Under the pieces are notes generated by a model. The model made no database searches, was not told where the DNA came from, and saw only the letters and a list, made by a program, of their open reading frames with translations. A DNA stretch of 64,000 bases. Origin: an uncultured archaeon. GTDB lineage: Archaea > Asgardarchaeota > Thorarchaeia > Thorarchaeales > Thorarchaeaceae. Both the position numbers and the translations under genes were made by a program. The number at the start of each line of letters is the position of its first letter. Within the stretch, counting starts at the first letter, position 1. Location of the stretch: the NCBI GenBank assembly GCA_964458565.1, contig CAYWJO010000002.1:72908-136907 (forward strand), written 5' to 3'. This document shows, in pieces, positions 62,537-62,777 of this stretch.

Positions 62537-62777
62537 TTCCATCTGCTCGAAATGAGTACTTGACCTACCCCGTCATTGAACTCGCACTCGCAACACGGTC
62601 CCAACAACGAGTTCTTTACAGATATCAGACCATTAGGTTTGATATCCTTAGCATTGGTCCCCTGCCAACATTAGTTGGCAACTACTTTGCGCTTGGTCGG
62701 GTATTCGAGGAGGAGAGCAGTGCGGAAGCGGAGGGTTCGCCTCTAAGGTGGCTTCGGCCCGGCGAACCACTCCTTTT
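62537..62777 (+). ncRNA. Candidate multi-branched structured RNA ending in a UUCG-containing hairpin + T4
   Basis: Six or more helices with G-U pairs valid only on the + strand; two ATTA-looped hairpins; cUUCGg tetraloop. Confidence 0.55.

Follow-up and report, generated by a model that had tools for sequence, protein, structure and literature searches.

Between two protein-coding genes in a 64,000-nt stretch of DNA from an uncultured archaeon of the family Thorarchaeaceae (the window), a spacer of 517 nt contains an element, at positions 62537-62777, that has the appearance of an elaborately folded RNA. The gene before it, p377, encodes a longin/wHTH protein for which Pfam gives only a weak MarR_2 match, and its orthologues, which are 80-87% identical, lie upstream of the element in every genus examined. 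The ORF after it encodes an Arf-family GTPase, in which an N-terminal extension of ~120 residues precedes the Arf-type G domain and an acidic, Glu/Val-rich tail runs off the window. This setting raises the question of what the element is, and of whether it serves either of the genes beside it.

The element differs from its surroundings in composition, with a GC content of 0.54-0.56 inside it and of 0.30 in the flanks. Its + strand has a minimum free energy (MFE) of -98.3 kcal/mol (z -4.98), as good as which none of 200 shuffles was, and the minus strand has a z of -3.06. An earlier reading of the letters alone (the sequence-only reading) had proposed a set of helices, all of which are present at the positions it gave and are reproduced by the MFE fold of the + strand. 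The GGTCCC that it saw repeated in two loops is likewise found twice, with the second copy at 62656-61. It had also drawn attention to twin hairpins with AUUA loops; both are in place in the window, but they are not conserved, and other genera have different hairpins there or lack them. The last hairpin is followed by TTTT at 62774-77.

BLAST against relatives picked out two conserved blocks in several genera, all of the same family, and the flanking genes are syntenic. A consensus of 13 sequences obtained with MAFFT and RNAalifold was poor because the helices were misaligned, and it was replaced by a covariance model, for which three sequences from a single genus served as the seed, and by model-guided realignment. 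For metagenomes, a core model (67 positions, comprising J2/3, P3 and the second motif) was used, which kept 10 contigs among the 80 matches listed; none of these ten resembled a transcript. The alignment to the covariance model contains 39 sequences, ten of them from metagenome contigs, and, with the proviso that fitting to a model favours the modelled structure, 90.5% of its cells form standard pairs and 52 of the 59 modelled pairs have changed on both sides. The observed values were reached by none of 500 shuffles, and slid partners pair in 36-44%. P2 is paired in 90% of its cells, and each of its 13 modelled pairs has changed on both sides. The P3 stem is almost invariant in sequence, with compensatory change in genera g12 and g13, and 98.8% of its cells are paired. 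Independent folds of single sequences give the same architecture in every genus. Furthermore, many pairs alternate with G-U among the 39 homologues, which fits transcription from the + strand only.

A 79-codon ORF at 62560-62799 was set aside as a coding reading because of the compensatory changes in the helices and the irregular indels among homologues. Candidate pseudoknots (the linker paired with J4/2 or with CCCCGUC, or the J4/2 box paired with CGCAA of the P3 loop) showed no covariation when the alignment was inspected, and RNAduplex was uninformative on long sequences.

Across the family, P1 (3-7 bp) and P2 (~13 bp) close a multi-branch core, which is followed by a linker and a 3' hairpin (Table 1). 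Within the core are CCCCGUC, P3, the second UUGGUCCCC, one or more variable hairpins, and CUUGCGCA. The 3' hairpin is conserved at its base and covaries in its upper stem, with a tip that ranges from ~20 to 55 nt across homologues and that carries UUCG in some genera only. In most homologues a U-rich stretch is found at most ~15 nt past this hairpin.

Table 1. Features of the p377-RNA-GTPase locus, in window coordinates.
Feature	Position	Strand	Remarks
Candidate target, GGGACC box and Shine-Dalgarno GGTGA	61252..61264	+	Box at 61252-57, GGTGA at 61260-64
p377, longin/wHTH (NPRL2-like), 377 codons	61271..62404	+	Start GTG; always followed by the RNA gene
BRE/TATA-like box of the RNA gene	62497..62512	+	Putative promoter; predicted transcription start ~62535
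P1, 5' strand	62543..62548	+	Partner 62715-62720; in MFE fold; 3/3 modelled pairs compensatory
P2, 5' strand	62554..62565	+	Partner 62695-62706; 12 bp, three G-U; in MFE fold
J2/3 junction strand CCCCGUC	62568..62574	+	Near-invariant; invariant columns in alignments A1 and A7
P3 hairpin	62578..62614	+	Stem 62578-84/62608-14; loop with first GGUCCC, 62597-62602
First AUUA-loop hairpin	62621..62646	+	Window-specific insert outside the family core; absent from all other genera
Junction motif UUGGUCCCC, with second GGUCCC	62654..62662	+	Kept in most genera
Second AUUA-loop hairpin	62663..62680	+	Variable P4 position; unrelated hairpins there in other genera
J4/2 junction strand, box CUUGCGCA (CUUUGCGCU in the window)	62685..62693	+	Conserved block
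P2, 3' strand	62695..62706	+	MFE fold and covariation
P1, 3' strand	62715..62720	+	MFE fold and covariation
Linker CGGAWGCGGA and 3' hairpin, then U-run	62722..62778	+	Conserved linker; UUCG loop in the window; predicted 3' end
BRE/TATA-like box of the Arf-like GTPase gene	62843..62859	+	Between the RNA and the GTPase ATG at 62922
Arf-like GTPase ORF	62922-63998	+	Pfam Arf, 76.8 bits, residues 123-276

Comparison with known classes of RNA gave no counterpart. A search of the whole window against Rfam 15 with cmscan, at the gathering threshold, returned a tRNA at 2118-2188 as its sole match, and the region 62300-63000, searched at E up to 10, gave two sub-threshold chance matches on the minus strand. 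Archaeal SRP RNA and RNase P RNA resemble the element in size class, in standing out as GC-rich from an AT-rich spacer, and in having their own promoter. Each is encoded by a single essential gene per genome. Both identities were rejected because the two genes lie on other contigs of the same genome (SRP RNA, RF01857, 87.9 bits; RNase P RNA, RF00373, 142.2 bits), and the element matches neither model. As a box C/D guide RNA it would lack the conserved RUGAUGA/CUGA boxes, as judged by inspection of the alignment, as well as any Rfam match; as an H/ACA guide RNA it would have a 3' hairpin without a pocket and a tail that is not consistently ACA. A paper describing the RNA was not found in the literature. 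The element is new to the catalogues, an uncatalogued structured non-coding RNA of the + strand, and in this the sequence-only reading, which had recognised no known class and had suggested a novel non-coding RNA, agrees with the Rfam searches and the strong covariation. Its further suggestion of a protein sponge, drawn from repeated loops, is not supported: the twin AUUA loops are specific to the window, and the repeated motif that is conserved is GGUCCC. A second structured RNA was noticed at 60117-60323 of the window, upstream of tmk; the core model had no second match in the window that would point to kinship between the two.

The RNA family is restricted to one family of Thorarchaeota. 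Of 86 genomes of this family, 63 gave a full-length match to the narrow covariance model, seeded on one genus, almost always one per genome, and the core model located the RNA directly downstream of p377 in 24 of the 26 genomes sampled from it. Elsewhere in the phylum, the core model was run on 124 genomes belonging to 26 families and had no match. One of its two misses (L091, in genome G012 of genus g13) is a decayed copy downstream of p377 that has kept the P3 stem and carries mutations in each of its two C-rich motifs (GGUUCC and AAUUCCC); the motifs are intact in the sister genomes G026 and G035. A single genome (G077, genus g6) has two model matches, at C103:183-377 and C21:38495-38708, and J2/3 of the second of these (L075) contains inserted sequence, with duplication or contamination of the bin as possible sources. 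In the sister family (G037), the p377 orthologue has 65% identity and the GTPase gene comes directly next, across an AT-rich spacer of ~125 nt; neither the RNA nor a GGGACC box is present at that locus. A MITE or another dispersed repeat, which the sequence-only reading had named as the origin to suspect if copies were many, was rejected because the element is single in the 3.7-Mb assembly, as it is per genome in relatives.

Signals for transcription accompany the structure. Nearly all homologues are preceded by a box of the form RGAARGSTTCWTATG, at 22-65 nt from P1, and in homologues where it is further away the gap is occupied by an extra 5' hairpin. This box resembles the BRE/TATA regions of p377 and of SRP RNA in the same clade, and it has only two occurrences in the 3.7-Mb genome. 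These features point to a separate gene of ~240 nt, at ~62535-62778 on the + strand, with expression and ends as predicted from the promoter-like box and the 3' hairpin. One promoter form, ACAAGSTTTTTTAGG, is shared by two sites: 61180-61194 of the window, about 45-50 nt ahead of the start codon of p377, and the upstream region of SRP RNA (G000:C47), ~25 nt ahead of that RNA. It can be used as a local BRE/TATA consensus of the clade.

The most obvious functional surface of the RNA is its GGUCCC motifs. The shorter GUCCC occurs on average 2.2 times per RNA, with at least two copies in 34 of 37 RNAs, and its predicted mean unpaired probability is 0.68, compared with 0.39 for the whole RNA. Upstream of p377 stands a complementary GGGACC box, two nt from the Shine-Dalgarno sequence and 13 nt from the GTG start, and in the window this box and the P3 loop have 8 contiguous Watson-Crick pairs. 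GGGAC followed by C, U, or A adjoins the p377 Shine-Dalgarno sequence in 11 genera, with the remaining UTR variable, and contiguous Watson-Crick pairing between RNA and box spans 6-9 bp across genera. The p377 mRNA is a plausible candidate target. Genera g5, g13, and g14 have no such box at p377 and retain the RNA with GGUCCC motifs intact. When the tree of p377 is rooted with the sister family, g5 branches first, with only moderate support and a long outgroup branch; since this genus is also box-less, the motifs probably predate the p377 target. Complementarity in the flanks is no better for cognate than for non-cognate pairs of RNA and UTR (permutation p 0.46). GGGACC boxes near start codons show no enrichment, and no regulon signal, in the host genome, and the UTR of the GTPase gene is without a conserved box. 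As a target, p377 is probably neither the original nor the only one.

Two further observations concern sequences of this type. Outside the window, a 384-codon, membrane-protein-like ORF (G000:C40:7258, + strand) has a 5' region, TAAATGGGGACTCGGG...GTG, that closely resembles the p377 box and Shine-Dalgarno sequence, and which may be a second target or a chance match. In 5' UTRs of p377 (for example L052, L232, and L233), AGCUCC is found ~25-30 nt upstream of the box, is conserved in several genera, and can pair with a Shine-Dalgarno GGAG in folds of single sequences. If this element is real, the RNA, by binding the adjacent box, could make the ribosome-binding site accessible instead of blocking it.

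The reading that we prefer, at a probability of roughly 0.4, is that of a trans-acting base-pairing RNA with p377 as a target; both the pairing in cells and the direction of regulation are proposed here from sequence comparison. The RNA, probably as a ribonucleoprotein, would display one to four unpaired GGUCCC motifs and act in trans through them. A motif would pair, over 6-9 bp, with the GGGACC box of the p377 mRNA, the one candidate target identified, and the pairing would mask the ribosome-binding site or change its structure, and in this way tune the translation of a eukaryote-like GTPase-regulator protein.

Other explanations place the RNA in the transcript of one of its neighbours. The sequence-only reading had considered that the element might regulate the GTPase gene in cis, with an alternative pairing as in attenuators, and a leader or riboswitch in this position would be on the same strand as that gene and upstream of it in most genomes, with a complex junction and conserved unpaired nucleotides such as riboswitch aptamers have inside covarying helices. 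Against this, a promoter-like box of the GTPase gene lies downstream of the RNA in the window, most genera have a comparable box in the interval from the RNA to the GTPase start, and the distance between RNA and GTPase gene varies from 145 to >1100 nt. In g5 (L092) and g13 (L226 and L227), the intervening stretch reads as coding on the opposite strand, which indicates that the partner kept by the RNA is p377 rather than the GTPase gene. A U-rich stretch also follows the 3' hairpin, and the attenuator pairing that had been put forward, of CCTCC at 62524-28 with GGAGG, is not conserved and would have its CCTCC upstream of the predicted transcription start. The RNA differs from riboswitches and leader RNAs in that no regulated ORF is contiguous with it, in having its own promoter box and probable 3' end, and in being confined to a single locus in each genome. 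The separate promoter boxes of the two genes argue for an RNA gene rather than a leader or attenuator, and that explanation is largely refuted and extremely improbable. The alternative on the other side is that the RNA derives from, or doubles as, the 3' UTR of the p377 mRNA, with GGUCCC pairing in cis with the box in the 5' UTR. It draws on the same complementarity as pairing in trans, and without exception the RNA comes straight after p377 on the same strand, in some cases only ~30 nt past the stop codon. Yet a conserved BRE/TATA-like box precedes the RNA structure, and the gap from p377 widens to 280-790 nt in some genomes, so that we regard a 3' UTR as unlikely.

The remaining explanations turn on features that a seed does not account for. 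The P3 stem, the junction strands, and the base of the hairpin are left unexplained by seed pairing, which suggests a protein partner or a tertiary fold. The RNA may therefore be mainly a protein-binding scaffold or decoy, with GGUCCC, the P3 stem, and the junctions as protein-binding or tertiary sites for p377 itself or another RNA-binding protein, and with the match to the p377 box secondary or coincidental. The sequence itself is invariant in the P3 stem and the unpaired junctions, the motifs persist where the box is missing, there is no sign that seed and box co-evolve, the RNA is strictly linked to p377, and in size and elaboration it far exceeds typical small RNAs that act by seed pairing. 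On the other hand, no candidate protein was found, p377 orthologues of the sister family exist without the RNA, and the placement of the box beside the Shine-Dalgarno sequence in 11 genera has, by our estimate, a chance probability of roughly 1-5%. This possibility deserves to be taken seriously, although we hold it tentatively. A multi-helix junction with invariant unpaired nucleotides, in an RNA that matches no known family, could in principle belong to a new class of self-cleaving or otherwise catalytic RNA; its single copy, its occurrence in one family only, the lack of association with mobile elements or processing sites, and the failure to find a conserved pseudoknot make this very improbable. 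There is also a slim chance that the GTPase-regulator module (p377, the longin-Arf GTPase, or both) contains the RNA as an integral subunit or has it as an allosteric partner. In that case, proteins would contact GGUCCC and the invariant P3, and the UTR box would serve for feedback. Overall, the RNA is most likely a new C-rich-seed regulatory RNA or ribonucleoprotein.

Regulatory RNAs with C-rich seeds are known from Firmicutes. In Staphylococcus, unpaired UCCC motifs of RsaE and RNAIII block ribosome binding (PMC2790875). The RNA described here shares with RsaE/RoxS and with the UCCC loops of RNAIII the presence of several unpaired C-rich motifs in the most conserved parts. In 11 genera these motifs also have a complementary G-rich site beside a Shine-Dalgarno sequence, comparable to the sites matched by those RNAs in ribosome-binding regions. 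The likeness lies solely in the proposed mechanism, as the RNA is archaeal and has no kinship in sequence or in Rfam to these RNAs, RsaE (RF01820) included. It is also two to three times larger than they are, with a closed multi-branch core and invariant junctions, and its 6-mer GGUCCC would pair beside the Shine-Dalgarno sequence and not with it. In contrast to these RNAs, it has one candidate target, missing in three genera, and no regulon signal.

To our knowledge, very few structured non-coding RNAs beyond the universal ones are known in Asgard archaea. This RNA merits an entry in Rfam, as Thorarchaeota genomes are currently annotated with an empty spacer at its position. Its gene is found throughout the family, adjoining two genes with a 'eukaryotic signature', an NPRL2/longin-like regulator and a longin-Arf GTPase. 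Were the RNA to prove a subunit of the module that these genes encode, Asgard archaea would have an RNA-containing complex for the regulation of small GTPases. If it controls or joins the module, it would represent RNA-level regulation of a proto-eukaryotic GTPase system, and the 6-9 bp pairing, which can be mutated, would provide a tractable handle for studying these proteins.
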